A stretch of 64,000 bases of DNA from Candidatus Omnitrophota bacterium. Lineage in GTDB: Bacteria > Omnitrophota > Gorgyraeia > Zapsychrales > Zapsychraceae. The stretch covers positions 17,282-81,281 of the forward strand of contig JAGQKV010000019.1 of the NCBI GenBank assembly GCA_020429915.1. Reading direction: 5' to 3'. The stretch's first letter is position 1; every line of letters begins with the position of its first letter. Below the pieces are notes generated by a model. It searched no databases, was not told where the DNA came from, and was given only the letters and a program-made list of their open reading frames with translations. Of this stretch, positions 21,181 to 48,730 are shown piece after piece. The translations under genes were made by a program, and so were the position numbers.

Positions 21181-22218
21181 ATGTCCACCTACATAGAGAA
21201 TATTTTGGCCAAAGCTCCTTATGTGATTGCCGAAGCCGGCATCAACCACAATGGCGACCGTGCGCTGGCCCGTGATATGATCGACGCCGCCAAGGAAAAC
21301 GGCGCGGATTGCATCAAGTTTCAGAGTTTTTTGGCTGACAAGTATATCTCCAGGAAGGCGGGCCGTGCGGGTTACCAGAATCAATCTTCGGTCGGCGGTA
21401 AAAGTCAGCATCAGATCATTCAGGAAACGGAAATGAGCCAGGAGATGTATATCGAATTGTGCGCACATGCCGCCAAAAGAGAGATCGATATCTTATCCAC
21501 GCCTTTCGAAGTCTGGAGTTTCCGTTCACTGATGGAGTTGAAGGTCCCGGCCGTCAAGATCAGCTCCTGCAATCTTACGAATTATCCTTTTTTGCGGGAG
21601 ATCTCCGCGACGGGTGTGCCCGTCCTATTGTCCACAGGGATGGGGACCTTGGAGGAGGTGGATAAGGCGGTGACGATATTTAAGGAGAGCGAATCGCCGC
21701 TTATTTTATTTCAGTGTACGTCCAATTATCCGTCCAGGATTGAGAATGCGAATTTAAATGTCCTTAAGACTTACCAGCAGCGTTATGAAGTGCCGGTGGG
21801 TTTGTCGGACCACACACCGACGCATACCACCTGCATTGCGGCGGTGGCTTTGGGTGCGGTCGCCTTGGAGAAACATTTTACGTTGTCCCGGAAGCTTCCG
21901 GGTATCGATCAACAAGCCTCTATAGAGCCGCGGGAACTCAAAGAACTGGTGACCGCCGTGCGGGATTGCCGGAAGGCATTGGGCAGTGCCGAGAAAATGC
22001 GTTCGGATGAAGAGGAAGACACGTTTGTCGCGTTGCGGCGAAGTTTGGTGGCCGCCCGGGATTTGACCAGCGGGGAAGTATTGACCGAGGAGATGATCGC
22101 CATTAAGCGCCCGGGCAATGGATTGACGACGGAATATTTGCCGCGGCTGGTCGGAAAAAAGCTCTCGCGGGATATCGGGGAAGACGAGTTGCTGCGCCTG
22201 GAGGATTTTGGTGACTGA
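21181..22218 (+). CDS. NeuB-family nonulosonate synthase, third paralogue
   Basis: IAEAGINHNGD, IKFQSF and a C-terminal SAF domain. RBS AAGGAG before the ATG at 21181 (the track ORF started 123 nt upstream inside the previous gene). Confidence 0.85.
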   Translation: MSTYIENILAKAPYVIAEAGINHNGDRALARDMIDAAKENGADCIKFQSFLADKYISRKAGRAGYQNQSSVGGKSQHQIIQETEMSQEMYIELCAHAAKREIDILSTPFEVWSFRSLMELKVPAVKISSCNLTNYPFLREISATGVPVLLSTGMGTLEEVDKAVTIFKESESPLILFQCTSNYPSRIENANLNVLKTYQQRYEVPVGLSDHTPTHTTCIAAVALGAVALEKHFTLSRKLPGIDQQASIEPRELKELVTAVRDCRKALGSAEKMRSDEEEDTFVALRRSLVAARDLTSGEVLTEEMIAIKRPGNGLTTEYLPRLVGKKLSRDIGEDELLRLEDFGD

Positions 22219-26759: not shown

Positions 26760-28594
26760 TGTCCAAACGGGGAACCGCCTACAAATTAGGACGTATCAAT
26801 GAGTTCTTGAGCCGTTTCGGTATCCGGAAACGTTCGTTGGTGTTTATTGTCGGTATTATGGGCGTCTCGGCTGCCTGTGAGGCGATGTCGGCAGGATTGA
26901 TCATACCGTTCCTGAATACGTTTCAGAATGCTCAGGCCGCAGATAGCGACAACAGGATCGTCCGGTTCTTGATGAGCCTCTATGACGGTTACGCCCGGGA
27001 GGAACGTTTCCTGTATCTCCTGTGCACGATGATCGGGATGATGACTATCGTACAGCTGCTGCTTATTTTTACCAATCGGTTGGTACTGAAGTTCTCGATG
27101 TTTACCATTCAAAACCGCATAGCCGAGATGTTGTTCGATGAAATCCTGAACGCGCGGCTGAAGTTCTTTTACAAACAACGGTCCGGCAATCTGATCAACC
27201 ATCTCAGAGAAGATGTTAACCGTTGTTACAACTGTATATACCACCTGCTGAAGGTGGTGGCTCCCTTGTTGATTATCACGGCCTTTCTCGCCGTCAGTTT
27301 TGTAATCGTGCCGGGATACACCGTCTGGTTTGTGGCTGGATTGGGCATCGTCGGCTGCTCGTTCAAGTTCCTGCTCCCCTATTTGTACTCTCTTGGCATT
27401 CGTAACCGCAACGCGTATCAGGATGCCAACAACGTTATTGTGGAAACCTTGCAGGGAATCCGCACGGTCATTTTGTCTTCGGCTCAGGACAAATATCAGC
27501 GGAAGTTCAATGATATCCTCCGCCGGTATTACAGTACGATATTCAATTCATCTTTCATCACGATCTCGCTTCCCACCTTTGTGAAACTGATCGCCTTATT
27601 GACCATCGGCACCGCGCTGTTGTTTAACCGGGACGCGATCGTTGCCGCCGAACCTGAAATGTTGTCCAAGATATTCTTTTTTGTCTACGTGGCAGGTATG
27701 ATATTCACCAATCTTGGAAAGATCAATTCATCGCATTCGAGTTTCGCGTTCGGATTTGAAGGATTGGAAGCGTTGCTGAAACTGGACGATCAACTGCGGG
27801 AATCCAAGAAAAGCAAGCCGATCGGGCGGACACCGTTTCCGCAGTTCCAGCGGCAAGTGGACGTCAAGAATTTGTGCTTCGAGTACATTAAAGGCTGTCA
27901 GATCATCCATGATCTGTCGTTTACGATCACAAAGGATCAGAAGGTGGCGTTTGTGGGCAGTTCCGGAAGCGGCAAATCCACACTCATCGATATCCTCAGC
28001 GGTTTTCACGATGACTATACAGGATCCATATTAATCGACGGAACCGAATTGCGTGATATTGACAAGGGAGATTGGAGGTCCTTGTTTGGGTACGTCAGCC
28101 AGGAAACATTCATCTTCAACGATACGGTGTACAACAATTTGATCTTCGGGTTGGACCGTCAGGTGGATATGCAGGAGGTCATCGAAGCGACCCAAAAGGC
28201 GCAGATTTATGACACGATCATGGCCTTCAACCAACAGTTTGAGACCGAACTCGGTGAGCGCGGCATCCGGCTTTCCGGCGGAGAGAAGCAACGCATCGCT
28301 ATTGCCAAGCTTTTTCTGAAGAACCCCACGGTCGTCATACTGGATGAAGCGACCAGTTCTCTGGACTCGGAGGCGGAACGAAAGGTCAAAGAGGCGCTCG
28401 ATTTGCTCGGCGAAGGCCGGACCGTGCTGGCGGTCGCGCACCGGCTGTCCACCATTGCGGACTACGACCGGATATATGTGTTGGAACAGGGGCGCATCGC
28501 GGAGAGCGGTAATCATTATGAGTTAATCCAACTGAAAGGCCATTATCACCGGTATTTCAGTCTTCAATCCATGGAAGGAAGTTATGTCGTCTAA
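26756..28594 (+). CDS. ABC transporter, fused permease/ATPase (MsbA-like lipid/polysaccharide exporter)
   Basis: Six N-terminal TM helices; Walker A GSSGSGKST, signature LSGGEKQR, Walker B ILDEAT; ATGA overlap start at 26756. Confidence 0.85.
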   Translation: MMSKRGTAYKLGRINEFLSRFGIRKRSLVFIVGIMGVSAACEAMSAGLIIPFLNTFQNAQAADSDNRIVRFLMSLYDGYAREERFLYLLCTMIGMMTIVQLLLIFTNRLVLKFSMFTIQNRIAEMLFDEILNARLKFFYKQRSGNLINHLREDVNRCYNCIYHLLKVVAPLLIITAFLAVSFVIVPGYTVWFVAGLGIVGCSFKFLLPYLYSLGIRNRNAYQDANNVIVETLQGIRTVILSSAQDKYQRKFNDILRRYYSTIFNSSFITISLPTFVKLIALLTIGTALLFNRDAIVAAEPEMLSKIFFFVYVAGMIFTNLGKINSSHSSFAFGFEGLEALLKLDDQLRESKKSKPIGRTPFPQFQRQVDVKNLCFEYIKGCQIIHDLSFTITKDQKVAFVGSSGSGKSTLIDILSGFHDDYTGSILIDGTELRDIDKGDWRSLFGYVSQETFIFNDTVYNNLIFGLDRQVDMQEVIEATQKAQIYDTIMAFNQQFETELGERGIRLSGGEKQRIAIAKLFLKNPTVVILDEATSSLDSEAERKVKEALDLLGEGRTVLAVAHRLSTIADYDRIYVLEQGRIAESGNHYELIQLKGHYHRYFSLQSMEGSYVV

Positions 28595-29573
28595 GAAAAT
28601 ACTTGTCACCGGCGGATCAGGTTTTATCGGATCGGCCCTCGTTCGGCGGTTGGTCGCGCGTGGTTACTCGACCACGGTGTTCGACAACAATTTCCGCGGT
28701 ACGGCTGAGCGTTTGGCGGATGTCGCCGACCGTATTGATATCATTGAGGGCGATATCCGATCCCGCGAAGAAGTCGTTAAGGCTACGACCGGTATGGACA
28801 CTGTTTTTCATCTGGCTTTTATTAACGGGACCAAATACTTTTATCAGCGGCCGGATCTGGTCCTGGATGTCGGTGTTAAGGGCGCTGTCAACACGGTGGA
28901 GGCGGCCCTCGAGTGCGGTATTGCCCAATACATTCTGGCCTCGTCATCGGAAGTGTACCAGCAGCCGACGCACATCCCCACGACGGAAGAAGAACGCATC
29001 CTGATTCCGGACGTGCGAAACCCCCGCTACAGTTACGGCGGAGGAAAGATTATCAGTGAGCTGCTGACCATCAATATGTTCCGGGAGACGGCGGTGAGTC
29101 ATCAAATCTTCCGGCCGCATAACATCTTCGGTCCGCAAATGGGATTTGAACACGTGATCCCCGAGTTGGTCCGCAAGATTACGGAGGGGACGAACGGTTT
29201 TAAGGATCAGCAGTGCCGTATCGAAATACAAGGGACGGGTGAAGAGACCCGCGCCTTTTGTTACGTCGAGGACGCGGTCGATCAATTAATATTTATTTTA
29301 GAGAAAGGAAAGTCGGGAGAAATATATCATATCGGGATGGAGGAAGAAATCACCATACGGCAACTGATTGAAGACATCGGCCAGGCGTTGGGGGTGCGGA
29401 TCGAAGTCAGCGCCGGGGAGCTGCGCAGCGGGGGGACATCCCGGCGGTGTCCCAGCATCCGGAAGGTGTGTTCGCTCGGATACAAACCCGAAAATCATTA
29501 TCGGACCGGCCTGAAGAAAACCGTCGATTGGTACCGAGAATATTTTATGAAGGAGATGCCCATTGGAACCTAA
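28584..29573 (+). CDS. NAD-dependent sugar epimerase/dehydratase (SDR family)
   Basis: VTGGSGFIGSALVRRL, YSYGGGK catalytic motif; 329 aa. Confidence 0.85.
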   Translation: MSSKKILVTGGSGFIGSALVRRLVARGYSTTVFDNNFRGTAERLADVADRIDIIEGDIRSREEVVKATTGMDTVFHLAFINGTKYFYQRPDLVLDVGVKGAVNTVEAALECGIAQYILASSSEVYQQPTHIPTTEEERILIPDVRNPRYSYGGGKIISELLTINMFRETAVSHQIFRPHNIFGPQMGFEHVIPELVRKITEGTNGFKDQQCRIEIQGTGEETRAFCYVEDAVDQLIFILEKGKSGEIYHIGMEEEITIRQLIEDIGQALGVRIEVSAGELRSGGTSRRCPSIRKVCSLGYKPENHYRTGLKKTVDWYREYFMKEMPIGT

Positions 29574-29586
29574 GACCCAAAACAAA

Positions 29587-30690
29587 ATGGATTTCATTCC
29601 GATAGCCAATACATATATCGGTGAAGAGGAGGCCCAAGCGGTCTACGACGTCGTCCGTTCCGGCTGGATCAGCATGGGCAAGAAGGTTCAGGAGTTTGAG
29701 GCCAACGTGGCCGGTTACGTGGGCGCCCGCCATGCGCTGGCGATGAACAACGGGACCTCAACTTTGCACGCCATCCTGACGGCCCTGGGCATCGGTCCGG
29801 GGGATGAGGTGATCTTGCCGACGTTGACCTACATCTCGACATCCAACGTAGTTCTCTATCTCGGAGCCAAACCGGTCCTGTGCGAATGCGATCCATTGAC
29901 ATTTAACGTGGAACCCGAACACATCCGTCCGCATATCACGGAGAAAACCAAGGCCTTTATGACCGTCGACATGAAGGGGCAACCGGTGGACTTTGACGCC
30001 TTCAACACCCTGAGCCGGGAAACCGGTATTCCCTACGTTTCCGACAGCGCGGAGTCGCTTGGCGCTATTTACAAGGGCGAAAAGGCGGGCTCGCAGGCAT
30101 TGGTGCACTCGTTCAGTTTCTTCGCCAATAAGAACATTACGACGGGCGAAGGCGGAATGGTTACGACCAATGACACGGACCTATATGAGAAACTGGTTAT
30201 CATCCGCAATCAGGGACAGGAAGGCCGTTACAATCACACGTGGCTGGGCAACAACTACCGCATGCCCGACATCCTGGCGGCCTTCGGCATCGAACAGTTT
30301 CGCCGGGTCGACTGGCTGATGGAAGAGAAATCGAAGCTCGCGGCGTACTATAACCGGGCCTTTGCCGATTATCCGCAAATAAAGACGCCGTTGGTCCGCG
30401 ACTACGTGGGAAGGCCCAGCTGGTATATGTATTCCATCCTCGTTGATCCCGCCAGGCGCGACGGGCTGCTGGAATACCTGAAGGACAATAATATTGACAC
30501 GCGGCTTTCATTTCCGCCGGTCCACATCCAGCCTTACTACGTACAGCAGTTCGGTTACCGGCCTGGGGATTATCCTGTGTCCTGGGAGACCTTCCGATCA
30601 TTTGTGGATATTCCGATCTGGGTGGGGATGGGACAGGAACGGCAGGACTACATCATTGAACGGATCACGGAGTATTTGGAGAAGGCCTAA
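29587..30690 (+). CDS. DegT/DnrJ/EryC1/StrS-family sugar aminotransferase (PseC-like)
   Basis: PLP-aminotransferase motifs (FSFFANKNITTGEGG); start at the ATG at 29587 (the track ORF began at a TTG overlapping the upstream gene). Confidence 0.85.
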   Translation: MDFIPIANTYIGEEEAQAVYDVVRSGWISMGKKVQEFEANVAGYVGARHALAMNNGTSTLHAILTALGIGPGDEVILPTLTYISTSNVVLYLGAKPVLCECDPLTFNVEPEHIRPHITEKTKAFMTVDMKGQPVDFDAFNTLSRETGIPYVSDSAESLGAIYKGEKAGSQALVHSFSFFANKNITTGEGGMVTTNDTDLYEKLVIIRNQGQEGRYNHTWLGNNYRMPDILAAFGIEQFRRVDWLMEEKSKLAAYYNRAFADYPQIKTPLVRDYVGRPSWYMYSILVDPARRDGLLEYLKDNNIDTRLSFPPVHIQPYYVQQFGYRPGDYPVSWETFRSFVDIPIWVGMGQERQDYIIERITEYLEKA

Positions 30691-31194
30691 ATGGGACGTG
30701 TCTATTGGATAACCGGCCTGTCCGGCGCCGGAAAAACGACCATTGCCGAAGCCTTGTTGAAGGCTATCCGGGAGGCGGGGCAGTCCGCGGTATTTCTCGA
30801 CGGAGATCAATTGCGGGAGGTGTTCGGCCGGCGCGAGGCCTATCAGCGGGAGGACCGCCTGGATTTGGCCCTGCAGTATGCGCGGTTGTGCAAGATGCTG
30901 AGTGAACAGGGATTGACCGTGATCTGCGCGACGATATCGTTATTTAAGGAAGTGCATGCCTGGAACCGGGAGCACATTCCCGGTTATACAGAAATCTTCC
31001 TGAAAGTCCCATTGGACGTCTTGCGGGCGCGTGATTCCAAGGCTATCTACAGCCAGGCGGCGGAAGGAAAATTGCAGCAGGTCATGGGGGTGGACATCCC
31101 GCATGATGAGCCGCCGAGCCCGGATCTGGAAATCGTCAATGACGGAAGCCGGTCACCGGCGGAGATCGCCAGGATTATTTATGAGCTTCATTGA
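30691..31194 (+). CDS. CysC/APS-kinase-homologous small kinase (Cj1415-like, candidate cytidine diphosphoramidate kinase)
   Basis: P-loop GLSGAGKTT and LDGD motif; 167 aa. First gene of a five-gene block that matches the MeOPN pathway. Confidence 0.75.
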   Translation: MGRVYWITGLSGAGKTTIAEALLKAIREAGQSAVFLDGDQLREVFGRREAYQREDRLDLALQYARLCKMLSEQGLTVICATISLFKEVHAWNREHIPGYTEIFLKVPLDVLRARDSKAIYSQAAEGKLQQVMGVDIPHDEPPSPDLEIVNDGSRSPAEIARIIYELH

Positions 31195-33532
31195 AACCAC
31201 ATTCAAATTCGGGACCAAAGCGGAAACACTGGAACGGATCGGACCGTTACTGGAAACGATCCGCTGTCCCCAGTTGTTTTATTTTACCGTCACCGATTGG
31301 CGGACCGACGCGCAGGGTTGTCTGAGCAAGGCCCGCGCAATGTATGCTGATGCGGTCCGGATGGTGGTCCGCAGCAGCGCCCAAGGGGAGGACCGCCAAG
31401 AATCATCTATGGCCGGCGCGTATTGCAGCGTCCTGAATGTGACTCATGACAAGCTGACCGAAAGCATCGAGACGGTCATAAAATCGTATGGTGGTCACGG
31501 CGGTGATCAGGTCCTTATTCAGCCGATGATATCGGATATTGCCGTCAGCGGAGTTATTATGACGCGCAATCTGGAAGACGGCGCCCCGTACTATGTGATC
31601 AACTACGATGATCTGTCCGGCAAGACCGATTCGATTACCGGAGGCGTCGGCGTCCATAAGACGGTTTTGGTAAGCCGTGACTGCGACGAGGCCAACTTCG
31701 ATTCGCGCCGGTTAAAGGCCATGGTGCGGCTGGCCAAGGACGTGGAAAAGATTACTCGCGACACACCCGTCGATATCGAATTCGCGCTGGGCGAGGACCT
31801 TGTTCCCTATTTATTTCAGGTGCGGCCCATCAGCGTGTGTCAGAACTGGGACGGCCGTATGGCGGATCAGGTCCGGGAATCCATTCCGCACGTCGAACGG
31901 CTCGTTCGCGAGCAGTCGGCGCGGCAACCCGGCATTTACGGTGACCGGACGATCCTGGCCAATATGTCCGACTGGAATCCCGCCGAGATGATCGGGGTGC
32001 ATCCGGACCCGTTGGCGGCGAGCCTCTACCGTGAATTAATCACCAAGTATGTGTGGCAGCGCGCGCGGGCCGAAATGGGATACTATGGGGTCGACGCGGA
32101 ACTGATGACTTTTCTGTACGGTCAGCCGTATATTGACGTTCGCCTCAGTTTTAATTCTTTTTTACCGGAAGACTTATCGACGGACGTGTCCGAGAAACTG
32201 GTGAACGCGTGGCTGGACCGCTTGGACCGTCATCCGGAACTGCATGACAAGGTGGAGTTCGACGTCGCCCAGACGTGTCTGGATTTTTCTTTTGACCGCG
32301 ATTTGGACGAACGCTATCCCGGATTGCTCAATAAGGCGGAGCGCGAGGAATTCCGTACGGCGTTGAGGACTTTGACGCAGCGGGCGTTGACGCTGGATTC
32401 CGGAAATACGCTGTCGCAGGCGATGGAGCGGATCCGCGGGCTCGCGGAGAGGCAGCGGCAGGAGCGGCATCCTACGTTAAAGGACCTGGTGGAGGAGTGC
32501 AAGCTGGAGGGAACGCTGCCGTTTTCGATGATCGCCCGGCACGCGTTTATTGCGGAGAAGATTCTCCGATCGGCGGTGGAATCCGGGGCCTTAACCGAAG
32601 AACGGCTGCAGCAGTTCAAGACGTCCGTGCACACGGTGACGAGCGCGATGGCCGGCGATTTGAAGAAGGTCGCCGAGCAGACCATGCCGCAGGAAGAATT
32701 TCTTAAGGAGTACGGTCACCTGAGACCCGGAACGTATGATATCCAGTCCCTGTCCTACCGGGACAGGTCCGCGCTGTTCGCGGGAGGCATCCGGTTGCCG
32801 GAACGGCGGCACACCGAAGATTTTGAACTAAACCCGGAAGAGGCACGGCGTTTGAATGCCCTGTTGGCCGGGGCCGGATTGACGGTGGCGGCGACGGATC
32901 TTCTGGTACATGCCCGTCTGGCGATCGAAGGCCGGGAATATGCCAAGTTCGTCTTTACCCGCAATATATCCGAGATCCTGGAAATGCTTGTCGGATGGGG
33001 CGAAAGGCACGGGTACTCCCGGGAAGATTTGGCGTGTTTGACCATCCACGATTTTCTGTCGGTTGAGGACCCTCAGCACCTGGCTGGCCGAATAGCAGAG
33101 GTCAGCGATGCCGTCCGCCGGGAACAGGCGCTCAGCCGGCATTTAAAACTCAGCTATCTGATTCGCGGCGTGCGCGACATATATATCGTTCCCCTGCATC
33201 GCAGCGCCCCCAATTTTATCGGGCAGGTCCGGATTACCGGAGAGACCGTGATCCTCGACGCGCATTCCGGGGCGGAAGTGGATATTGAAGGTAAGATCGT
33301 TTGTATCGAAAATGCGGACCCCGGTTTCGATTGGATATTCACCAAGGGTTTAAAGGCGCTGATCACAAAGTTCGGCGGGGCGAATTCCCATATGGCGATC
33401 CGCTGCGCCGAATTCGGATTGCCGGCCGCGATCGGTTGCGGGGAGGAAGTCTTTCAGCGTGTCGTGGACGCCGGACATGTCGAGCTGAACGGTTCGGATA
33501 AGACGTTGCGGCCGATCGGAATGGAGTCGTGA
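31181..33532 (+). CDS. PPDK/PEP-synthase N-terminal (ATP-grasp) domain plus C-terminal PEP-utilising swivel phosphohistidine domain, with no PEP-binding TIM barrel; rifampin-phosphotransferase / Cj1418 (L-glutamine kinase)-like
   Basis: 783 aa. The mobile-domain signature GGANSHMAIRCAEFGLPAAIGCG lies at the extreme C-terminus (the PEP synthase arrangement would put it in the middle). Start at the ATG at 31181, overlapping the upstream stop by 14 nt. Confidence 0.7.
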   Translation: MSFIETTFKFGTKAETLERIGPLLETIRCPQLFYFTVTDWRTDAQGCLSKARAMYADAVRMVVRSSAQGEDRQESSMAGAYCSVLNVTHDKLTESIETVIKSYGGHGGDQVLIQPMISDIAVSGVIMTRNLEDGAPYYVINYDDLSGKTDSITGGVGVHKTVLVSRDCDEANFDSRRLKAMVRLAKDVEKITRDTPVDIEFALGEDLVPYLFQVRPISVCQNWDGRMADQVRESIPHVERLVREQSARQPGIYGDRTILANMSDWNPAEMIGVHPDPLAASLYRELITKYVWQRARAEMGYYGVDAELMTFLYGQPYIDVRLSFNSFLPEDLSTDVSEKLVNAWLDRLDRHPELHDKVEFDVAQTCLDFSFDRDLDERYPGLLNKAEREEFRTALRTLTQRALTLDSGNTLSQAMERIRGLAERQRQERHPTLKDLVEECKLEGTLPFSMIARHAFIAEKILRSAVESGALTEERLQQFKTSVHTVTSAMAGDLKKVAEQTMPQEEFLKEYGHLRPGTYDIQSLSYRDRSALFAGGIRLPERRHTEDFELNPEEARRLNALLAGAGLTVAATDLLVHARLAIEGREYAKFVFTRNISEILEMLVGWGERHGYSREDLACLTIHDFLSVEDPQHLAGRIAEVSDAVRREQALSRHLKLSYLIRGVRDIYIVPLHRSAPNFIGQVRITGETVILDAHSGAEVDIEGKIVCIENADPGFDWIFTKGLKALITKFGGANSHMAIRCAEFGLPAAIGCGEEVFQRVVDAGHVELNGSDKTLRPIGMES

Positions 33533-33534
33533 AC

Positions 33535-34152
33535 ATGATAAAGATCGGTATCACCATGCGCGTAGTGGAGGCTCAAGGATACCGGGAACCCCGGGACGCC
33601 CTCGCCCAGGATTGGACGGATTTTATGGCGGTGGCCTTTCCCGAATGTCTGTGGATGCCCGTTCCCAATGTGGGTAACCGTGTGGTTGAGTATGTGCGGG
33701 CCTGGGATCTCGACGCCTTTATTTTCTCCGGGGGAAATGATTTGGGGTCGTCGCCGCGGCGCGATCAGACGGAGCAGGCCCTGCTGAAGTATGCCGTGGA
33801 GAACCGGCTGCCTGTCTTCGGCGTCTGCCGCGGGCTGCAACTGCTCCATCAGTATTACGGAGGGGCCTTGGAGCCGTGTGATGCCGGCGTGCACGTGGCC
33901 GCGCAGCATGATGTGGATTTGAACGGAGAAACGTATCGGGTGAATTCCTATCATAATTTCGGTATCCGCGAGACCGCCGTCAGTCCCGCCCTCACGGTTA
34001 TCGCACGAACCGGCGACGGTTGGGTGGAGGGGGTGGATCTGACCGACGCGCCGGGCCGGGCGGTGATGTGGCATCCCGAACGCGACCGACCCTACCGGAA
34101 ACGGGATATTCAATTGATGCGCGAATGTTTATTGGAAGGAGTACCCTCATGA
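33535..34152 (+). CDS. Class I glutamine-amidotransferase-like (peptidase C26 / gamma-glutamyl hydrolase) protein, Cj1417-like
   Basis: GATase1 nucleophile elbow GVCRGLQLL and a C-terminal His region (WHPE); 205 aa. Confidence 0.7.
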   Translation: MIKIGITMRVVEAQGYREPRDALAQDWTDFMAVAFPECLWMPVPNVGNRVVEYVRAWDLDAFIFSGGNDLGSSPRRDQTEQALLKYAVENRLPVFGVCRGLQLLHQYYGGALEPCDAGVHVAAQHDVDLNGETYRVNSYHNFGIRETAVSPALTVIARTGDGWVEGVDLTDAPGRAVMWHPERDRPYRKRDIQLMRECLLEGVPS

Positions 34153-34901
34153 AGGCTGTGATTCTGGCCGCCGGGCGCGGTTCCCGCATGAAAGGATTAA
34201 CCGACGAGAAACCGAAATGTCTGAACGAGCTGCTGGGGCGGCCGCTGTTTGACTGGCAGCAGGAATCCCTGCGTGAGGCCGGCATCACGGATATCGTCGT
34301 GGGCCGCGGCTACCGGAAGGAATTGCTGACCGGAGATTTTCAAACCGCCGACAATGACCGCTGGGACCAGACGAATATGGTGTATACGCTGCTGTGTGCC
34401 GCACCGTATTTGCGCGCGGACACGTGCGTGGTGTCCTACGCCGACATCGTGTATCATCCGGACCACGTCCGGGCCTTGATGGCGGCCGCCGGCGACGTGG
34501 TAATCACCTATGACACGCTGTGGCGGCCGTTATGGGAATTGCGGTTTCCGGATCCGCTGGCCGATGCCGAGACATTGCGTATCGACGAACGCGGTATCAT
34601 TCAGGAAATCGGCCAAAAGGCGGCGTCTCTCGAGGAGATTCAAGGGCAGTATATGGGATTGCTGAAATTCACGCCGCAGGGTTGGGGGCAAGTCGAAGAA
34701 CTGCTCAACCAAATGCCCCCCGCCGATTTGGACCGGCTGGATATGACGTCGTTGTTGCAAAAGGTTATCCGTCGCGGAATTCCGATCAATACGGTCGGAG
34801 TGAAGGGGCGATGGTGTGAAATCGATAGCGAAACGGATCTTGACGTTTGCACGAAACACGCAAACACCGATCAATGGGAACATGACTGGAGATGGGAGTA
34901 G
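34149..34901 (+). CDS. Sugar/phospho-substrate nucleotidyltransferase (NTP_transferase fold; LicC/Cj1416-like cytidylyltransferase)
   Basis: N-terminal AVILAAGRGSRM motif; 250 aa; ATGA overlap start at 34149 (track ORF started upstream at 34020). Confidence 0.8.
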   Translation: MKAVILAAGRGSRMKGLTDEKPKCLNELLGRPLFDWQQESLREAGITDIVVGRGYRKELLTGDFQTADNDRWDQTNMVYTLLCAAPYLRADTCVVSYADIVYHPDHVRALMAAAGDVVITYDTLWRPLWELRFPDPLADAETLRIDERGIIQEIGQKAASLEEIQGQYMGLLKFTPQGWGQVEELLNQMPPADLDRLDMTSLLQKVIRRGIPINTVGVKGRWCEIDSETDLDVCTKHANTDQWEHDWRWE

Positions 34902-34904
34902 AGG

Positions 34905-35684
34905 ATGAGTACATCAATCAAACATGGTGATTTTAGTCTTTTGGCCGAGAATTATTCTAAATATCGGCCGGGCTATAGTGAAGATATTCTGGAATTGGTT
35001 TTGACCAAGGTGGGCAAGCCGATATCCGAACTCGATTTCGTCGATGTGGGCGCCGGAACGGGCATCTGGACGCGGATGGTGGCGGAGGCCGGTTGCCGCA
35101 CCACGGCGGTTGAGCCGAACAATGAAATGAGAAAGTATGGCGAGAGTACGGATCCGCATTTGAAAATTAATTGGGTGAAAGGGGCCGCTGAGTCGACGAC
35201 GCTGCCGGACAGCAGCTGCGATCTGGTCAGTATGGCTTCCTCGTTTCATTGGCCTGATTTTGACAGCGCGGTTCATGAATTTCATCGGATCTTGCGGCCG
35301 CAGGGATATTTCGTGGCCCTGTGGAATCCGCGCTTGATCGAAGTCAATCCGATGTTGGTTACGATAGAGAACAAATTGAAAGAATTGGTGCCGCATATGA
35401 AGCGCAAGTCATCCGGCCGTTCAGAATTCTGTGATAATTTGACTGACCGGCTGTTGCAAAGCGGTTGCTTCCAGAATGTGATTTACATGGAAGGCCGTCA
35501 CGTCGAGAGAATGTCCCCGGAGAGGTATATAGGGATATGGAATTCGGTTAATGATATCCGCAGTCAGGCCGGGGAGGAAAAGTTCCAGGAATTTATGGAT
35601 TTTGTCGAACGAACGATAGCGGGACTTGATGCCATTGAAGCAACGTACCTTACACGGGCGTGGTTGGCTCAAGTAAAGAAATAG
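34905..35684 (+). CDS. Class I SAM-dependent methyltransferase (Cj1419/Cj1420-like)
   Basis: SAM-binding motif I VDVGAGTG; 259 aa. Confidence 0.8.
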   Translation: MSTSIKHGDFSLLAENYSKYRPGYSEDILELVLTKVGKPISELDFVDVGAGTGIWTRMVAEAGCRTTAVEPNNEMRKYGESTDPHLKINWVKGAAESTTLPDSSCDLVSMASSFHWPDFDSAVHEFHRILRPQGYFVALWNPRLIEVNPMLVTIENKLKELVPHMKRKSSGRSEFCDNLTDRLLQSGCFQNVIYMEGRHVERMSPERYIGIWNSVNDIRSQAGEEKFQEFMDFVERTIAGLDAIEATYLTRAWLAQVKK

Positions 35685-35728
35685 TTTTCAAGATTATACC
35701 GGTGCTCCATAAAAAAGAGGAGGTTTAA

Positions 35729-36231
35729 ATGTCAAATTTGAAGAGAGTTTTGGTTCTGACCTTGGTCTTGATGCTCTCAGTCGGGGGGGGGACGCATTTG
35801 CTAAATCCGGAAGCGCGGTAACCCCTTACGTTAAATCCAGGTATACGTCGAGTTCATCGTATGCCCATTTTCATGTATACGTTTCGAATATTACCTCGAG
35901 CAGCATCAATGTATCGGTTACATTTTACGACGAAAGTGGAACCATCGTCACGGATGGTGATGATAGTCCCAGCACGGGATCGATACGAAATGATACCGGC
36001 ACGGTAACAAATTGGGATGATGCACCCACGTCATCAAGTGTGTCGTTTACCTTGGGAGGCAATGAAACGACAGCGATCCATTTTCGGCCGTCTTCTTTGA
36101 CTTCAGGGTACGCTATTATCGAATGGAGCCAGGATGGCGACAATGTGGTGGGGTTGGTCGCCAGCATTCTGAGAGAGCACTATGGCGATGGATTCAGCGT
36201 TGAGCCCATAAACAACGGGCTGCCGTTCTAA
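35729..36231 (+). pseudogene. Frameshifted (candidate phase-variable) gene for a secreted Ser/Thr-rich ~167-aa protein; the frame is broken at a G9 homopolymer
   Basis: RBS AAGAGGAGG then ATG at 35729 encoding signal peptide MSNLKRVLVLTLVLMLSVGGG. A G9 run (35783-35791) is followed by a stop at 35819. A +1 G (G10) or -2 G (G7) would fuse to the downstream frame (open to 36231) giving ...DAFAKSGSAVTPYVKS...EPINNGLPF. The tail of that frame is the track ORF 36040..36231. Confidence 0.5.
35783..35791 (+). repeat. Homopolymeric G9 tract, candidate slipped-strand phase-variation site
   Basis: Nine consecutive G read directly from the sequence, located at the frame break of the 35729 ORF. Confidence 0.8.
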
Positions 36232-36306
36232 ATAGTTTTAAAATAATATAGTGGGGTGCCGGTATCACTCTAGGCTGTATTCAGGTAACTCTAAACAGGA
36301 TAATGT

Positions 36307-37440
36307 ATGCACGAGGGTCCTAAGATAATTTTTCTGGTCTGCGCCGGGCGCACCGGTTCCAGTTTTCTGCATACGTTGCTGGATTCGCATCCGGAGGTGT
36401 TAATGCTGCCGATGGAATTGTCTTTTTACCGGATGTGGGACCGGCTGGGCTGTGATCAGGTTAAGGACGCTGAGGAAATGGTCCGCCGCTGGACCGAGCA
36501 ATCGAAGCTGGCCAAATTGGCGGACAACGTCAATTACGGTATCGACGGCTCCACCAACGCGTATACGAGTTGTGATTTCCCGATCTTCCGGGACAGGTTT
36601 TTGTGTCTTCTGCGGGAGACTTCGCTCAGCCGCCGGGATGTCTTTTACGCGATCCACCGGGCGTATGCCGATGCCACCGGGGGGGATCTGTCCCGGTATC
36701 AGGTGATCATCGAGTTTTCCGCCATTTACATCGATATCGGCCGTGCCGTGGAGGACTTTCGGGAACCGCGGTTTATCCAGGTGGTGCGCGACCATCGGGC
36801 GACGTATGCCTCGATCAAACAGCATTTTTTGAACACGCGCCGCGGATTGTTCAACCTGCGGGGCAAGACACTGGAGCAAAAGTTGTCATTAATCCGGATC
36901 TTTAACAATTTTATCCGGACGATCAACAAACTGCGCGCGGGATTCGCCGCGCTCCCCGCTGATCATGTGCTGTACGTGAAACAGGAGGACTTGCATCTGA
37001 ATCTTGAGCCGACCATGCGGGAGGTCGCCGGGTGGTTGCAGATCGCATATGAGCCGTGCCTGCTGCACAGCACCCTGGCCGGTCATCCCTGGCAGGGCAA
37101 CAGCGCTTTCGGTAAGGCCGTCGCCGGAGCGACCCCGGAGGTGACCCGCCGCTGGATGACGACACTCAGTCCGCAGGAAATCCGGGTCATCGAGTATGTA
37201 TTCGGTGATGACATGGAGCGATTCGGTTACGCGTATTCCGCCGCTCGGCGGCCTTCGCGGTGGCAGGTTACGTGTGGAGGATTAATTCCTTTCCGCGGAG
37301 AGCTGGCCATCCTCGGCCGAAGCGCCAGACATATTGCCTTGGATATTATGAAGTGGCCGCTGCGCCTGGGGGCCTATCTGATGAGCCGGTTCTATCTGCT
37401 ACGGATCATCGCCGACGGAAAGAGGTTCGTGAATGGCTAA
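36307..37440 (+). CDS. Sulfotransferase-family protein (second copy)
   Basis: N-terminal P-loop-like FLVCAGRTGSSFL (5'-PSB) and VVRDHRATYAS (3'-PB RD.R) motifs; 377 aa. Confidence 0.6.
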   Translation: MHEGPKIIFLVCAGRTGSSFLHTLLDSHPEVLMLPMELSFYRMWDRLGCDQVKDAEEMVRRWTEQSKLAKLADNVNYGIDGSTNAYTSCDFPIFRDRFLCLLRETSLSRRDVFYAIHRAYADATGGDLSRYQVIIEFSAIYIDIGRAVEDFREPRFIQVVRDHRATYASIKQHFLNTRRGLFNLRGKTLEQKLSLIRIFNNFIRTINKLRAGFAALPADHVLYVKQEDLHLNLEPTMREVAGWLQIAYEPCLLHSTLAGHPWQGNSAFGKAVAGATPEVTRRWMTTLSPQEIRVIEYVFGDDMERFGYAYSAARRPSRWQVTCGGLIPFRGELAILGRSARHIALDIMKWPLRLGAYLMSRFYLLRIIADGKRFVNG

Positions 37441-38443
37441 GGTCCGCGTGGGTATTATCGGCTGCGGGAACATCGCGGGCCTGAATGAGAGTGACCCGTA
37501 CCGGCAGAAGCCCTGCACCCATGCTGGGGCATACAGCCGGCGGCAGGATGTTGAGATCGTCGGATGTTGTGACAGCGACGCCGGACGCGGCCGTGATTTC
37601 GCGCAGCGTTTCAGCATTCCCTGCGCGGTGACGAAGATCGGGCAGCTGCTGGACTTGCGGCCGGATGTCGTCAGTATCTGTGTTCCGTACCGCGCGCACC
37701 GCCGGATAGTGCAGCAGGTCGCGGGTCACCAAAACAGGCCCGCAAAGATCCTGCTGGAAAAGCCGATCGCGCACAGCGGCAAGGACGCTCAGGCGGTGGC
37801 GGATATCTGCCGGGAGAACGGCGTCCGGCTGTATGTCAACAACAGGAGGCTCTCGCCGTTTTACCGGAAGCTGCGCCGCATGGTCCGGGAAGATTTTCAT
37901 GACGAGGTGATCGCCGCCACCGCGTGGTGCTCGTCGGGCATGCACACGATCGGGATTCACATGGTGGACCTGCTGTGCAGTATCTGCGGGGAACCGTTGT
38001 GGGTAAGCGCCCAGAAGGAAGCGGCGCAAATCGAACGGCTGCCCTACAGCCACAACTTTACTCCGGACGATGACCGGTACCGGGCGGTCCTCGGTTACGC
38101 CAGAGACTTCGAGGCGGTCATCATTAATACGGCCCGCACCCGCTTCACGTATTTTGAGGTGGAGTTCTTGTTTCCCAACGGCCGGATCCGTGCCGTGGAT
38201 AATGGCCGGACGCTGATCGTACAGAAAATGGGAAGGCCGGGAAAATCAACCTTGTCGTACCGGCTGGCCGCGGAAAAACAGGTTGCCGTACAGGATAAAC
38301 CTTTATTTCAATTGGTCATCGACGAGGTCCTGACGGGGGATTACGACACATCCGCGGTAAGAGGAGAAGAAGCCCTGAAGAGTTACCGGGTGATCGAGGC
38401 CATGCGCCGGTCGGCGCGCACACAACGAAAGGTAAGTTTGTGA
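37433..38443 (+). CDS. Gfo/Idh/MocA-family oxidoreductase (second copy)
   Basis: VGIIGCGNIAG Rossmann motif, LLEKPIA motif; 336 aa. Confidence 0.8.
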   Translation: MAKVRVGIIGCGNIAGLNESDPYRQKPCTHAGAYSRRQDVEIVGCCDSDAGRGRDFAQRFSIPCAVTKIGQLLDLRPDVVSICVPYRAHRRIVQQVAGHQNRPAKILLEKPIAHSGKDAQAVADICRENGVRLYVNNRRLSPFYRKLRRMVREDFHDEVIAATAWCSSGMHTIGIHMVDLLCSICGEPLWVSAQKEAAQIERLPYSHNFTPDDDRYRAVLGYARDFEAVIINTARTRFTYFEVEFLFPNGRIRAVDNGRTLIVQKMGRPGKSTLSYRLAAEKQVAVQDKPLFQLVIDEVLTGDYDTSAVRGEEALKSYRVIEAMRRSARTQRKVSL

Positions 38444-39177
38444 ACGAAAAACCACTGCGCATCATAGCGGTGATCACCGCCCGGGGCGGATCCAAGGGAT
38501 TGCCCGGGAAAAACATCATAGATCTCGCCGGGAAACCGCTGCTGGCATATACCGTTGAGGCGGCCCTGCAGTCGCGTTACGTTGAGACGACGGTCGTCTC
38601 GACGGATGACGAAAAGATTCGCGAGGTCGCCCTGGCCGCCGGCGCCGAGGCACCTTTTTTGCGACCGGCCGAACTCGCCTCGGATACCGCGCATTCTCCG
38701 GATGTGGTGAGCCACGCGGTGGAATATTATGAGAAGCGGGACGGGAAAGACTACGACCTGACCGTCATGCTGCAACCGACGTCTCCGTTCCGGACCGGAC
38801 GGCATATCGACGAGGCGATCGAGAAGTTCCTGGAGGACCGCACGCTGGATTCTCTCATCTCTATTAAGAAACAGGATTATCCGCCCTGGTGGATGTTCAC
38901 CACGGAGGGAGCGCGGCTGCGGCCCGCGTTTCACTTTAAGGACGGGGTCAACGTGTTTAATCTGGAGCGCCAGGAATTCCCCACGGTTTACCGCCCGAAC
39001 GGCGCCATTTACGTTACCTGGAGAGAGTATTTAAAGAAGACCGGTTCGATTGTGAATCCGGAGAACAACGGTTATTACGTCATGAGCGAAGCGGATTCCA
39101 TCGACATCGATCTGAAAGCGGATCTGTACGCCGCCGAGTATGAAATGCAACTGCGCCTCGGGAACACGGTGACATGA
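38440..39177 (+). CDS. Acylneuraminate cytidylyltransferase (CMP-nonulosonate synthetase; NeuA/PseF/LegF-like)
   Basis: IAVITARGGSKGLPGKN signature; 245 aa; GTG start in a GTGA overlap. Confidence 0.85.
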   Translation: MNEKPLRIIAVITARGGSKGLPGKNIIDLAGKPLLAYTVEAALQSRYVETTVVSTDDEKIREVALAAGAEAPFLRPAELASDTAHSPDVVSHAVEYYEKRDGKDYDLTVMLQPTSPFRTGRHIDEAIEKFLEDRTLDSLISIKKQDYPPWWMFTTEGARLRPAFHFKDGVNVFNLERQEFPTVYRPNGAIYVTWREYLKKTGSIVNPENNGYYVMSEADSIDIDLKADLYAAEYEMQLRLGNTVT

Positions 39178-40130: not shown

Positions 40131-42250
40131 GCATGCTGTCGCTAAATATAGTTAGAGACAAATCCGGAATCCGGCCGGTCTCGACGGTGATCGTGGACCG
40201 TGTGGGCTGGCGGATGTGGGCGTATTTGATGTCGGGCCGGCGTTTGTCCGGGACACGGCGGCTGCTGGTGATGCCGTGTGCCTCGGCCTGGACATCCTGG
40301 CGCGGCCCGTCGACCGGGGGGGCAACCGGCCGGTCCTGGACGGAAAGGGCCGCGCTGGCCATGCTTCGCCGCCGTTATCCGGATGTGACGGTAGAGCGGC
40401 TGGGGGCCCGGGATTATCGCAGCGTGCTGACCGAAGCCGGTGTGTTGGCCGCTTCTTTGGCGGACACGCTGGTGGATCAATGTGACCATACGGGAACCCG
40501 CTATATGGCCATGTACAAGGGCCTCTTAGGCGGCAGCGACGATGTTCTGATCGCGATCAAGAAATTGATCTGCGCGGATCTGGAGGATTTGATTTGTTCG
40601 CTGCTGTTGGCGGCGAAGTTCGATCCGCGGGACAGCGTAGTGCTCATCGATTCCGCCAGAAATGCCAGTTTGATCGAGACACTGATCGATCAGGGGGGCA
40701 TCCGCAAACAAGCCGATGGTCAGGATTGCCGGTTCCAGGGCTCTCCGGCAAACCGGCAGGCGCAGGCGGCCGGCGCGGCCGCGGTGAATACCTTGTTGTT
40801 GTGGGGCATGATACTCAGGACACTGGTCACGCGGTGCCGATTCACCGCCCCCGCAAATATTATTCGTGCCAAAGTGGCTTGCCGGAATCTGTATAAAACC
40901 GAACGCCGCCGTCCCGGGGATACCCATTGCCTCAACTGGGGTGATATGGCCTTTCTGTTGGACGAGACTCATTTTACGGTGGACGACTTTGTGGTGTTGG
41001 CCAGCAACCGGCCGCCGGATACAAAAATCCGTCACGCGGACTCCTATCGGCAGTCCGATCTGCGGGTCTACGACATTCGCAAGGCTCGTCTGCCGTTGAA
41101 TCGGGCCGCCAAACGATTGGCCTCCCAAGGGATCACGGGAATGCGGCTGATATGCTCCGACCATCCCGGGGCCGTGGCCCGGATCGCCTGCGGCTATCTG
41201 CCGTTTTTCCTGGCGGAATACAATAAATGGCTGGCCATTTGCGCGAATGTCCGCTTCACGGCGTATTTGGACATCAACGAACATTCGTATGCGCATATCA
41301 TTCAAAAGATGGCCTTGTCCGAATGCGGCGCACACATTGTTTATTTGCCGCACGGGTATATGGAGCGGATCGGGCCGCAAAAATCTTTTATGTCCTACGC
41401 CTTGATGCTGTCTCCCGGGGAACATCTGGTGCGGGCGTTCGGCCAGTATTGGCCCGGCGACATGGCGGTTGAGATCGTGGGCAACATGAAGAATGAAGCG
41501 GTGGGAGCCGGGGAAGGCGAGCTGGCCGACCAGGGACTTCAAAAGCTGTTCACCGAGGCCCGTCGCGACGGGGGACGCGTGATTACGGCCGTTTTCGGAT
41601 CTTGTCTGGAAGATGAACTGCTCATGGACCGTTATGAACGTATGCTGGACTTTTTGGCTGAAGTCATGGAGGAAAATCCCGGTGTACAGGCCTTTGTCAA
41701 GTTCAAGACACCGCGCCAGACGGAGAAGTTCCGGAGAAAGCGGATGTTTGATCTGCTGGAAGGGCTGTTAAAAGGCGGCCGGGTGCATCTGGTGGACGGA
41801 GACCGTTACCAGGCAACGGTTCAGGCCATGGCCGTGCAATCGGATGCCGTCATCAGCGTCTCCGGCTACAATCAATCGGTCAGCACGGCGTGGGTGGAAT
41901 CCATGTTGCTGGGAAAACCGTCTTTGGCCTTTAACCCGGAGGCAAGCTGCGGTGAGACGCCTCTGTTGGATGATTATTACGATCAGTATATCTTTCGCTC
42001 GGAGGCGAAACTGAAGGCGGCTTTGGACCGCGTTCTCAACGGACACGCGGGAGACGGGAGTGTCAGCCCTATGGCGAAGCGGGATTTTGATCCCTTCTGT
42101 GACGGCGGCACCATGAACCGGATTCGACGGGCCTTATACGCTTTCGCGGAGAACCCGGGGCAATACAGTTGTGGGATTCCTTCGGTCGGCGCAATACGTG
42201 CGGCGGCCGGGGATAAATATTGCCGCCAGGAAGGAATATGTGCCTCATGA
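40127..42250 (+). CDS. Large putative glycan-modifying transferase (uncharacterised) whose 5' region shows a reading-frame discontinuity at a G7 tract
   Basis: ~707-aa ORF. Between ~40214 and 40322 the annotated frame has an out-of-frame composition (R/S/W/T-rich; codon position-1 GC ~50%, position-2 ~75%). The +2 frame has a coding-like signature (position-1 GC 89%, position-2 53%; ..VGVFDVGPAFVRDTAAAGDAVCLGLDILARPVDRGG). That frame rejoins the main frame exactly at G7 (40316-40322). The C-terminal 550 aa are coding-like. Confidence 0.5.
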   Translation: MSMLSLNIVRDKSGIRPVSTVIVDRVGWRMWAYLMSGRRLSGTRRLLVMPCASAWTSWRGPSTGGATGRSWTERAALAMLRRRYPDVTVERLGARDYRSVLTEAGVLAASLADTLVDQCDHTGTRYMAMYKGLLGGSDDVLIAIKKLICADLEDLICSLLLAAKFDPRDSVVLIDSARNASLIETLIDQGGIRKQADGQDCRFQGSPANRQAQAAGAAAVNTLLLWGMILRTLVTRCRFTAPANIIRAKVACRNLYKTERRRPGDTHCLNWGDMAFLLDETHFTVDDFVVLASNRPPDTKIRHADSYRQSDLRVYDIRKARLPLNRAAKRLASQGITGMRLICSDHPGAVARIACGYLPFFLAEYNKWLAICANVRFTAYLDINEHSYAHIIQKMALSECGAHIVYLPHGYMERIGPQKSFMSYALMLSPGEHLVRAFGQYWPGDMAVEIVGNMKNEAVGAGEGELADQGLQKLFTEARRDGGRVITAVFGSCLEDELLMDRYERMLDFLAEVMEENPGVQAFVKFKTPRQTEKFRRKRMFDLLEGLLKGGRVHLVDGDRYQATVQAMAVQSDAVISVSGYNQSVSTAWVESMLLGKPSLAFNPEASCGETPLLDDYYDQYIFRSEAKLKAALDRVLNGHAGDGSVSPMAKRDFDPFCDGGTMNRIRRALYAFAENPGQYSCGIPSVGAIRAAAGDKYCRQEGICAS
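40316..40322 (+). repeat. Homopolymeric G7 tract at a frame-switch point, candidate phase-variation site
   Basis: Seven consecutive G; G6 or G9 would place the upstream coding-like frame in register with the downstream ORF. Confidence 0.7.
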
Positions 42251-47995: not shown

Positions 47996-48730
47996 ATGAT
48001 CAATATCATCCGCAACTATCTTCACAAGAGCCAATGTCAGACCGGAATTGCCTTAACGGAAGAGGGCCGGCCGCGTACGGTTGTGCGGACCACATTCTCA
48101 CGGGAGGGGGCGGATATTCTGCGTGCCGAGATGGAATACCTGCGCTGGTACGCCCGCCAGGTTGCCGACGAGACCTTTCTCAATGACATGCAGGTGCATG
48201 TGCGAGACTGTTACGGCAAATGTCAATTTCCGTACCATGAGGGAGAAACCGGAGACTACTATCGGCCGCTCCATCTGAATGCCGGTAAAATAGCCGCTGT
48301 CGTGCGGCATTACGGTAAAATTTTTGCGGATGATGAGGCGCCGGTTCACGGGGATTTTTCGCTGGGTAACATTATTTTTAAGGGGGACGACGTTTCCTGG
48401 ATCATTGACTGGGAGAACGCGAACCGGTGCATGCCCCGGTGTTATGACTTGATTTACCTTATCACGGAGAACTGTCTGTTCTGCCGGTTGACGGGCACAA
48501 GGATTGCGGACGAAGACACCGCGGCGTATCGCCGGCTGTATCGGGAGATAAGCGATAAATATGAAATTCCGGCCCAAGTTGCGGACGGCCCGGGGCAGTG
48601 GTGTTCGGACGTTGTTCGGCGGTACATGGAGAAGACAGGAATAGATCACAGCAAATGCCCCTTTATTGCGGTCGAGGGTAAAATCATTCGGGAAGTGGAC
48701 GAAATCTTGAAACGAAACGGGTTGCCATGA
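47996..48730 (+). CDS. Small-molecule kinase of the aminoglycoside-phosphotransferase/choline-kinase (APH/ChoK) fold
   Basis: Brenner/catalytic motifs HGDFSLGNIIF and IIDWENA (HGD...N and D motifs of APH/ChoK kinases); 244 aa. Confidence 0.55.
   Translation: MINIIRNYLHKSQCQTGIALTEEGRPRTVVRTTFSREGADILRAEMEYLRWYARQVADETFLNDMQVHVRDCYGKCQFPYHEGETGDYYRPLHLNAGKIAAVVRHYGKIFADDEAPVHGDFSLGNIIFKGDDVSWIIDWENANRCMPRCYDLIYLITENCLFCRLTGTRIADEDTAAYRRLYREISDKYEIPAQVADGPGQWCSDVVRRYMEKTGIDHSKCPFIAVEGKIIREVDEILKRNGLP

Follow-up and report, generated by a model that had tools for sequence, protein, structure and literature searches.

In Campylobacter jejuni, the O-methyl-phosphoramidate (MeOPN) pathway involves an L-glutamine kinase (Cj1418), a CTP:phosphoglutamine cytidylyltransferase (Cj1416), a gamma-glutamyl-CDP-amidate hydrolase (Cj1417) and a cytidine diphosphoramidate kinase (Cj1415), together with the methyltransferases Cj1419/Cj1420 and the transferases Cj1421/Cj1422 (for the published steps see bioRxiv 10.1101/2024.11.05.622173, quoting Taylor et al. 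2017, and PMC6429109). In reviews, the glutamine kinase and the MeOPN chemistry have been described as specific to Campylobacter or to C. jejuni (PMC6429109, PMC9561416), a view of the literature that the initial annotation of the DNA studied here reported correctly; one survey covered the genus Campylobacter only (PMC3907429). Here we analyse a cassette of five consecutive genes in a 64,000-nt stretch of a Candidatus Omnitrophota contig (JAGQKV010000019.1; henceforth the window, whose positions are used throughout). We regard this cassette, with reasonable confidence, as a homolog of the C. jejuni MeOPN pathway set within an Omnitrophota surface-glycan island (see Table 1).

The two systems have in common four catalytic domain types, the order large kinase–hydrolase–nucleotidyltransferase (i.e., Cj1418-Cj1417-Cj1416, as had been pointed out initially), an adjacent S-adenosylmethionine (SAM) methyltransferase and a location in a surface-polysaccharide locus. 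Unlike its C. jejuni counterpart, the Omnitrophota cassette lies in a nonulosonic-acid island and not in a KpsMT capsule locus, and no Cj1421/Cj1422-type transferase was recognised with it; its partner is a sulfotransferase-fold gene. While domains, family models and gene order thus uphold an assignment of the four core genes to a MeOPN-type pathway, the epithet “complete”, which the locus had been given at first, is not established because no recognised phosphoramidate transferase was identified. The only report from outside Campylobacter that we came across in the searchable literature is a MeOPN-like four-gene cluster in the Cobalt Borg (genes 308-311; bioRxiv 10.1101/2024.11.05.622173), which likewise has Cj1416-Cj1418-like genes in a surface-glycoconjugate region. 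It differs in residing on an archaeal extrachromosomal element, in having been assigned by predicted structure, in containing a fusion of a cytidylyltransferase with a phosphoenolpyruvate (PEP) mutase, and in that no Cj1415-like kinase is mentioned.

Family placement of the cassette enzymes

Open reading frames (ORFs), Pfam matches and independent gene calls for the source contig (ENA ERZ28655936, scaffold WANG18-1_SAMN08389247_METAG-scaffold_18, 170 kb) agree on the boundaries and domains of all five genes. The large kinase matched the NCBIfam model NF004508/PRK05849, which we take to represent the Cj1418 family, over its full length with 881 bits (cutoff 501). By comparison, sister models scored 18-25x lower: PEP synthase models reached at most 49.5 bits and the rifamycin phosphotransferase model 35 bits, both through fragments of the swivel or ATP-grasp domains only, and the protein fails the cutoffs of these families (598-999 bits). 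Its AlphaFold model (predicted local distance difference test, pLDDT, 87.3; predicted template modelling score, pTM, 0.86) begins with an ATP-grasp domain, continues through a long helical middle domain and ends in a swivel domain; only the last of these found matches in a sequence search of the PDB. The swivel-domain histidine H737 (GGANSH motif, within GGANSHMAIRCAE) was invariant in 19 relatives, and relatives at 48-49% identity are named “glutamine kinase” by IMG. We therefore predict, on the strength of its family placement, that this protein is an L-glutamine kinase of the Cj1418 type (EC 2.7.3.13).

An alternative would be to read the 783-aa protein as a PEP synthase, a pyruvate, phosphate dikinase or an enzyme of the rifampin phosphotransferase (RPH) type, with a metabolic or antibiotic-resistance role. 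It shares with all of these an ATP-grasp domain and a swivelling phosphohistidine domain, its best solved fold is that of RPH (RPH-Lm, PDB 5hv1/5fbs) with the same order of three domains, and RefSeq names its relatives “pyruvate, phosphate dikinase” or “PEP-utilizing enzyme”. Yet its identity to RPH is 14-16%, its central domain is unrelated in sequence to theirs, neither the Pfam scan nor the AlphaFold model contains the PEP/pyruvate-binding barrel (PEP-utilizers_C), and its partners are fixed glycan-pathway genes. Together with the gap between family-model scores, this effectively refutes the alternative, in line with the initial likening of the protein to Cj1418.

The small kinase was likewise separated from its better-known relatives. 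It scored 196.6 bits against NCBIfam PRK05541 (cutoff 127), the family that we equate with Cj1415, and 123 bits against TIGR00455 apsK, i.e., under the equivalog cutoff of 138.7. The window provides an internal control in the form of a canonical CysC (8979-9539), 21 kb upstream of the cassette kinase, for which the outcome was the reverse: 267.7 bits with apsK (pass) and 101 bits with PRK05541 (fail). The two proteins share 31% identity, and the cassette kinase, whose P-loop reads GLSGAGKTT, has TISLF at the place of the canonical FISPY motif. By these models the protein is not an ordinary adenosine 5'-phosphosulfate (APS) kinase; it is a divergent APS-kinase-like enzyme that we predict to act as a cytidine diphosphoramidate 3'-kinase.

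The best NCBIfam match of the hydrolase was NF045546 (gamma-glutamyl-CDP-amidate hydrolase), with residues 4-192 of 205 aligned to profile positions 3-190 of 198. The score of 116 bits was more than twice that of the runner-up family, PuuD (51 bits), and motifs of a Cys-His-Glu triad (GVCRGLQ, WHPE) are present in the translation, all of which is consistent with a putative gamma-glutamyl-CDP-amidate hydrolase of the Cj1417 type. No specific NCBIfam model matched the nucleotidyltransferase, and its best PDB match, LicC (1jyk), was confined to the N-terminal 82 residues. Its relatives at 53-56% identity are called “L-glutamine-phosphate cytidylyltransferase” in IMG and, for an Azospirillaceae genome (P0207), in NCBI; a function as CTP:phosphoglutamine cytidylyltransferase (Cj1416 type) is accordingly what we predict. 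Finally, the methyltransferase has a class I SAM fold with the motif VDVGAGTG and would be responsible for O-methylation of the phosphoramidate. Among solved structures it comes closest to the HvrF methyltransferase (9e72; 54 bits) from the pantaphos phosphonate gene cluster, a likeness too weak to build on as a functional hint.

Taken in the order of the published pathway, the large enzyme would N-phosphorylate L-glutamine via a phosphohistidine intermediate, after which the nucleotidyltransferase would join the N-phospho-glutamine product with CTP to give CDP-L-glutamine. The Cys-His-Glu hydrolase would then split off glutamate to leave cytidine diphosphoramidate, and the divergent APS-kinase-like enzyme would phosphorylate its 3'-OH, yielding a donor that resembles 3'-phosphoadenosine 5'-phosphosulfate (PAPS). 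A transferase, most plausibly the sulfotransferase-fold protein downstream, would move the phosphoramidate to a sugar hydroxyl of a nonulosonic-acid-containing glycan, and the SAM methyltransferase would O-methylate the phosphoramidate group. What the analysis establishes is gene content, domains and motifs, placement by family models and conserved synteny, whereas all substrates, the acceptor and whether transfer comes before methylation are predictions.

Distribution and variants of the cassette

More than 4,800 protein clusters matched the large enzyme. In a genome scan with one genome per species, full-length relatives were confirmed in at least 593 species-level genomes, and we based all locus statistics on the best 80 of these loci. 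They span about 13 phyla (Omnitrophota, Pseudomonadota, Desulfobacterota, Bacteroidota, Balneolota, Verrucomicrobiota, Planctomycetota, Chloroflexota, Bacillota, Myxococcota, Patescibacteria, Fibrobacterota and Acidobacteriota) and include cultured carriers (Pseudomonas, Aeromonas, Alteromonas, Methylotenera, Methyloversatilis, Roseivirga and Thalassobaculum). Individual cultured carriers are Pseudomonas sp. KNUC1026, Aeromonas sanarellii LMG 24682, Methyloversatilis universalis and Roseivirga thermotolerans. Within the fetched flanks, the hydrolase was present in 69/80 loci, the nucleotidyltransferase in 68/80 and the small kinase in 61/80; all four core genes were found in 58 loci and all five genes, including the methyltransferase, in 16. 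The contiguous order large kinase–hydrolase–nucleotidyltransferase, the same as that of cj1418-cj1417-cj1416, occurred in 55 of the 80. Given the presence of the same module in so many species and phyla, we consider the window cassette genuine but ordinary. The rarity implied by the initial annotation thus did not hold: apart from this breadth, relatives already carry the corresponding names in IMG and NCBI, and the Borg cluster had already been reported. The value of the finding lies less in the single locus than in a phylum-spanning and poorly recognised distribution, in the cultured carriers and in a concrete candidate for the transferase. Most of these relatives are filed under generic names, for example “PEP-utilizing enzyme”. 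If the pathway is active, phosphoramidate decoration of surface glycans would be an overlooked trait that is widespread among bacteria, and the cultured carriers make this testable.

The cassette was also found on plasmids of Azospirillum, Vibrio alfacsensis, Cupriavidus taiwanensis, Agrobacterium vitis and others, where its products have generic RefSeq names. Azospirillum lipoferum 4B is a cultured organism that carries all five genes. On its plasmid AZO_p6 (locus L088, 3632-6172) an 846-aa protein consists of a region of about 650 aa fused to a Cj1415-like kinase domain, which scored 148.6 bits against the cassette kinase vs. 72 bits against the window CysC. Behind the gene for this protein come orthologs of the methyltransferase (54% identity), the large kinase, the hydrolase and the nucleotidyltransferase, with two sulfotransferase genes nearby. 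A Sulfotransfer_2-like assignment of the N-terminal part of the 846-aa protein was dropped, as neither Pfam nor PDB supported it. The large kinase of the Vibrio alfacsensis plasmid (L087, 6362-9349) is 995 aa long, its additional N-terminus of about 215 aa resembling the cassette nucleotidyltransferase (E 8.5e-08); cysD, cysN and an SLC13 permease gene lie divergently beside it, and a TagF-like gene comes after the cassette.

Accessory genes varied by lineage and included two types of methyltransferase, a Formyl_trans_N-like protein with a 190-aa partner, TagF-like and GT61-like proteins, and an SGNH-like membrane protein. In a gammaproteobacterial variant (L003, L011, L020, L024, L012, L040 and others) the cassette is without any methyltransferase, genes for the Formyl_trans_N-like protein (244 aa) and the 190-aa protein stand between the kinase and the large kinase, and TagF-like and paired GT61-like genes are present, which suggests a different end product. 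A 9.5-kb unannotated sequence labelled “Bacteriophage sp.” from human faeces (L089; MT837632.1; 41.7% G+C) encodes a large kinase of 34% identity followed by a hydrolase, and is probably a bacterial fragment.

A further explanation is that a CDP-activated amino-acid phosphate (CDP-glutamine or a relative) is itself transferred as a phosphodiester decoration, comparable to the LicC phosphocholine system or the phospho-N-methyl-threonine of C. difficile. In the former and in the Type A flagellar glycan of the latter (CD0241-CD0244), activation of a small phosphorylated molecule, which is then attached to a glycan, falls to a LicC-fold cytidylyltransferase, and a methyltransferase is part of the cluster. 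LicC is also the nearest solved relative of the cassette nucleotidyltransferase, RefSeq assigns relatives to the “phosphocholine cytidylyltransferase family”, this cytidylyltransferase family is also referred to in work on C. difficile, and TagF-like phosphotransferases are found beside the cassette in 10/80 loci as well as on the Vibrio alfacsensis plasmid. However, those systems are without an ATP-grasp/His kinase, an amidohydrolase and a 3'-kinase, they yield P-O-C phosphodiesters and not phosphorus–nitrogen (P-N) bonds, and the window contains no TagF-like gene. With CDP-glutamine as the donor, the conserved hydrolase and 3'-kinase-like gene would be left without a role, so this explanation fails to account for these two genes, and we regard it as unlikely.

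The sulfotransferase-fold neighbour

The sulfotransferase-fold gene that recurs next to the cassette offers a concrete candidate for the transfer step. Among 5.8 billion proteins searched, the subfamily to which it belongs was represented by only 4 clusters, each on a cassette-bearing contig. It was found in eight contigs (the window, L082-L085, L090, L091 and L092) and lies beside the cassette in 8/8. In the clade of the window, the methyltransferase gene is followed by the Sulfotransfer_3 gene, the two overlapping in L082, L083 and L091. L090 is a rearranged, dTDP-sugar-type, non-nonulosonate locus in which the cassette is on the opposite strand and the sulfotransferase-fold gene is divergent from the large kinase. 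A single 597-aa protein combines the sulfotransferase-fold domain with a GNAT acetyltransferase in L084 (11592-13385) and L085 (11622-13415); L082 and L083 encode the two in neighbouring but distinct genes, and the window has lost the GNAT. Sulfotransferase-fold genes unrelated to this subfamily flank the cassette in L086, L071, L062, L001, L009, L010, L021, L036, L059 and on the Azospirillum plasmid.

Two motifs were invariant in the subfamily, namely a 5'-PSB-like GRxGS and a 3'-PB-like RDxRAxYxS. The AlphaFold model was of low confidence (pLDDT 62); its Foldseek matches were all PAPS sulfotransferases, and it is silent on the donor. By analogy with the work on Cj1415, the predicted 3'-phosphonucleoside diphospho donor is a PAPS look-alike, which makes the protein a reasonable candidate for the transferase. 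In the system of CysC and PAPS sulfotransferases, too, a P-loop kinase of the APS-kinase fold is paired with a sulfotransferase that has the 5'-PSB and 3'-PB motifs kept here, the difference being that the predicted donor carries cytidine and phosphoramidate in place of adenosine and sulfate. We tentatively suggest, on the basis of the rarity of the subfamily, its 8/8 linkage (including the rearranged L090) and the other sulfotransferase-fold families in about ten further loci, that the protein may be, rather than a sulfotransferase, a phosphoramidate transferase that uses 3'-phospho-cytidine-5'-diphosphoramidate and decorates the nonulosonic-acid-containing glycan; the evidence leaves this somewhat short of an even chance. 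If true, it would be a new activity for the sulfotransferase fold and an answer, outside Campylobacter, to the question of the transfer step. The TagF-like “CGPTase” of C. jejuni, considered as a MeOPN transferase, was dropped as it is a different gene (PMC8949473).

Seen in another way, the small kinase and the sulfotransferase-fold protein could be an ordinary PAPS/sulfation pair that produces a sulfated glycan, with the other three core genes serving an unrelated step. The APS_kinase and Sulfotransfer_3 domains, the cysDN genes that adjoin the cassette on the Vibrio alfacsensis plasmid, the sulfotransferase genes near it in Azospirillum and the sulfation capacity of the island itself are all in keeping with this idea. 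The island has, besides the canonical CysC, a second Sulfotransfer_3 gene (20088-21176), and the glycan is for this reason probably sulfated too; the window ORFs that were scanned did not include an ATP sulfurylase. On the other hand, the apsK score of the cassette kinase is below the cutoff and the same island has a genuine CysC, the cassette kinase gene overlaps that of the large kinase, and the two travel together in loci most of which are without a sulfotransferase. We thus find an ordinary sulfation pair highly improbable.

The identification of the cassette with a MeOPN-type pathway has several points to contend with. First, likeness to Cj1415-Cj1418 was judged by family models, database names and gene order, and the correspondence of PRK05849 to Cj1418 and of PRK05541 to Cj1415 is presumed. 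Second, the score of the hydrolase lies under the Campylobacter-centred equivalog cutoff of NF045546 (250 bits) and indicates family-level kinship, not equivalog status. Third, the kinase gene comes first in the Omnitrophota cassette and not last as in C. jejuni, and there is a single methyltransferase, assigned at the level of its class I SAM fold, where C. jejuni has Cj1419/Cj1420; orthologs of it were found in just 17 of the 80 distant loci (vs. 7/9 of the other loci compared). Fourth, the TagF-like and GT61-like accessory genes of other loci have no homologs in the window, where a search for the Formyl_trans_N-like, 190-aa, TagF-like, GT61-like and SGNH-like (410-aa) families gave only weak, unrelated formyltransferase/methyltransferase matches. 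Lastly, with a CysC and a second sulfotransferase in the island, the sulfotransferase-fold protein next to the cassette may simply sulfate, and plain sulfation would be an equally simple account of it.

The surrounding glycan island

The genes are indeed consecutive, as described initially, whereas true overlaps exist at two cassette junctions only (kinase/large kinase, 14 nt; hydrolase/nucleotidyltransferase, 4 nt); the remaining junctions, including the one with the upstream aminotransferase gene ending at 30690, measure 0-3 nt. We interpret the cassette as a translationally coupled operon segment within the surface-glycan island; scans of 28000-38500 for promoters and terminators gave background level only. 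Its G+C content of 0.53-0.58 shows no anomaly relative to the rest of the window and makes the “high-GC bacterium” of the first description a moderately high one. NCBI proteins of a “Candidatus Omnitrophica bacterium” metagenome-assembled genome match the nucleotidyltransferase and the sulfotransferase-fold protein at 100% identity, and these identical proteins recur on dozens of contigs, whose lengths reach 452 kb, from which it follows that the host is an Omnitrophota bacterium recurring in many samples.

Table 1 Cassette genes and selected neighbours in the 64,000-nt window (window positions).
Feature	Position	Strand	Details
NeuB-like nonulosonate synthase fused to CTP_transf_3 cytidylyltransferase	13954-15717		587 aa
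Stand-alone NeuB	15714-16760		adjoins the NeuB-CTP_transf_3 fusion
Third NeuB	21181-22218		
LegB-like short-chain dehydrogenase/reductase (SDR) dehydratase	28584-29573	+	Pfam and NCBIfam matches
PseC-like aminotransferase	29563-30690	+	Pfam and NCBIfam matches; directly abuts small kinase gene
Small APS-kinase-like kinase, Cj1415-like	30691-31194	+	167 aa; Pfam APS_kinase 118 bits
Large L-glutamine-kinase-like enzyme, Cj1418-like	31181-33532	+	783 aa; Pfam PPDK_N and PEP-utilizers mobile domain
Class-I amidotransferase-fold hydrolase, Cj1417-like	33535-34152	+	205 aa; Peptidase_C26 76 bits, GATase
Nucleotidyltransferase, Cj1416-like	34149-34901	+	250 aa; NTP_transf_3 64 bits
Class I SAM methyltransferase	34905-35684	+	259 aa; Methyltransf_11 68 bits
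Sulfotransferase-fold protein	36307-37440	+	Sulfotransfer_3 57 bits
GFO/IDH oxidoreductase	37433-38443	+	Pfam GFO_IDH_MocA
PseF-like CMP-nonulosonate synthetase	38440-39177	+	CTP_transf_3; TIGR03584 PseF 150 bits, below cutoff of 205.7

The cassette is surrounded by a glycan island of about 55 kb, whose nonulosonic-acid character, proposed at the outset, is borne out by three nonulosonate synthases (NeuB genes) and the PseF-like gene. The island also contains PseC- and LegB-like genes, a formyltransferase, a UDP-sugar dehydrogenase, a PglK/MsbA-type ABC exporter, a GT2 glycosyltransferase, an initiating phosphoglycosyltransferase and a weak Wzy-like match, as well as two sulfotransferase-fold genes and radical-SAM, asparagine-synthase-like and further methyltransferase genes. 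Part of this setting is conserved in L082-L085 and L091, where the LegB-like and PseC-like pair also precedes the cassette (57-81% identity) and the GFO/IDH and PseF-like genes are kept after the sulfotransferase-fold gene.

This context is relevant to the question of whether the product might be a soluble small molecule with a P-N bond, for instance a natural product or a signal, in place of a glycan decoration. P-N natural products do exist (PMC6429109, PMC6482885), and accessory genes differ widely between loci. The cassette is, however, contiguous with sugar-nucleotide, ABC exporter, glycosyltransferase, Wzy-like and initiating phosphoglycosyltransferase genes, and the same is true of its closest relatives, so that we judge a soluble product very unlikely and continue to favour a phosphoramidate decoration of the surface glycan.

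Further genes of the island were without obvious assignment: no Pfam or NCBIfam family matched the large proteins at 40133-42250 (705 aa), 18290-20098 and 9549-10511. The 705-aa protein is kept after a FemAB-like gene in L091 (28% identity), shows weak likeness to big C-terminal proteins of L083, and may be a nonulosonate transferase or polymerase. A second small activation cassette (47996-50141) encodes an APH-like kinase (244 aa), an NTP_transferase (257 aa) and a HAD hydrolase (218 aa), and resembles kinase and cytidylyltransferase modules for phospho-substituents or sugar-1-phosphates.

A split ORF (35730-36231), for which no homolog was found in the ten related loci compared (L082-L091), lies in the 620 nt that separate the methyltransferase gene from the sulfotransferase-fold gene. 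It begins with 30 aa resembling a signal peptide (MSNLKRVLVLTLVLMLSVGGG...) that run into a G9 tract (35783-35791), past which a second frame of about 145 aa extends to a stop at 36231. The G9 state was identical in an independent assembly (L092), and the split ORF could represent phase variation, programmed frameshifting or a pseudogene.

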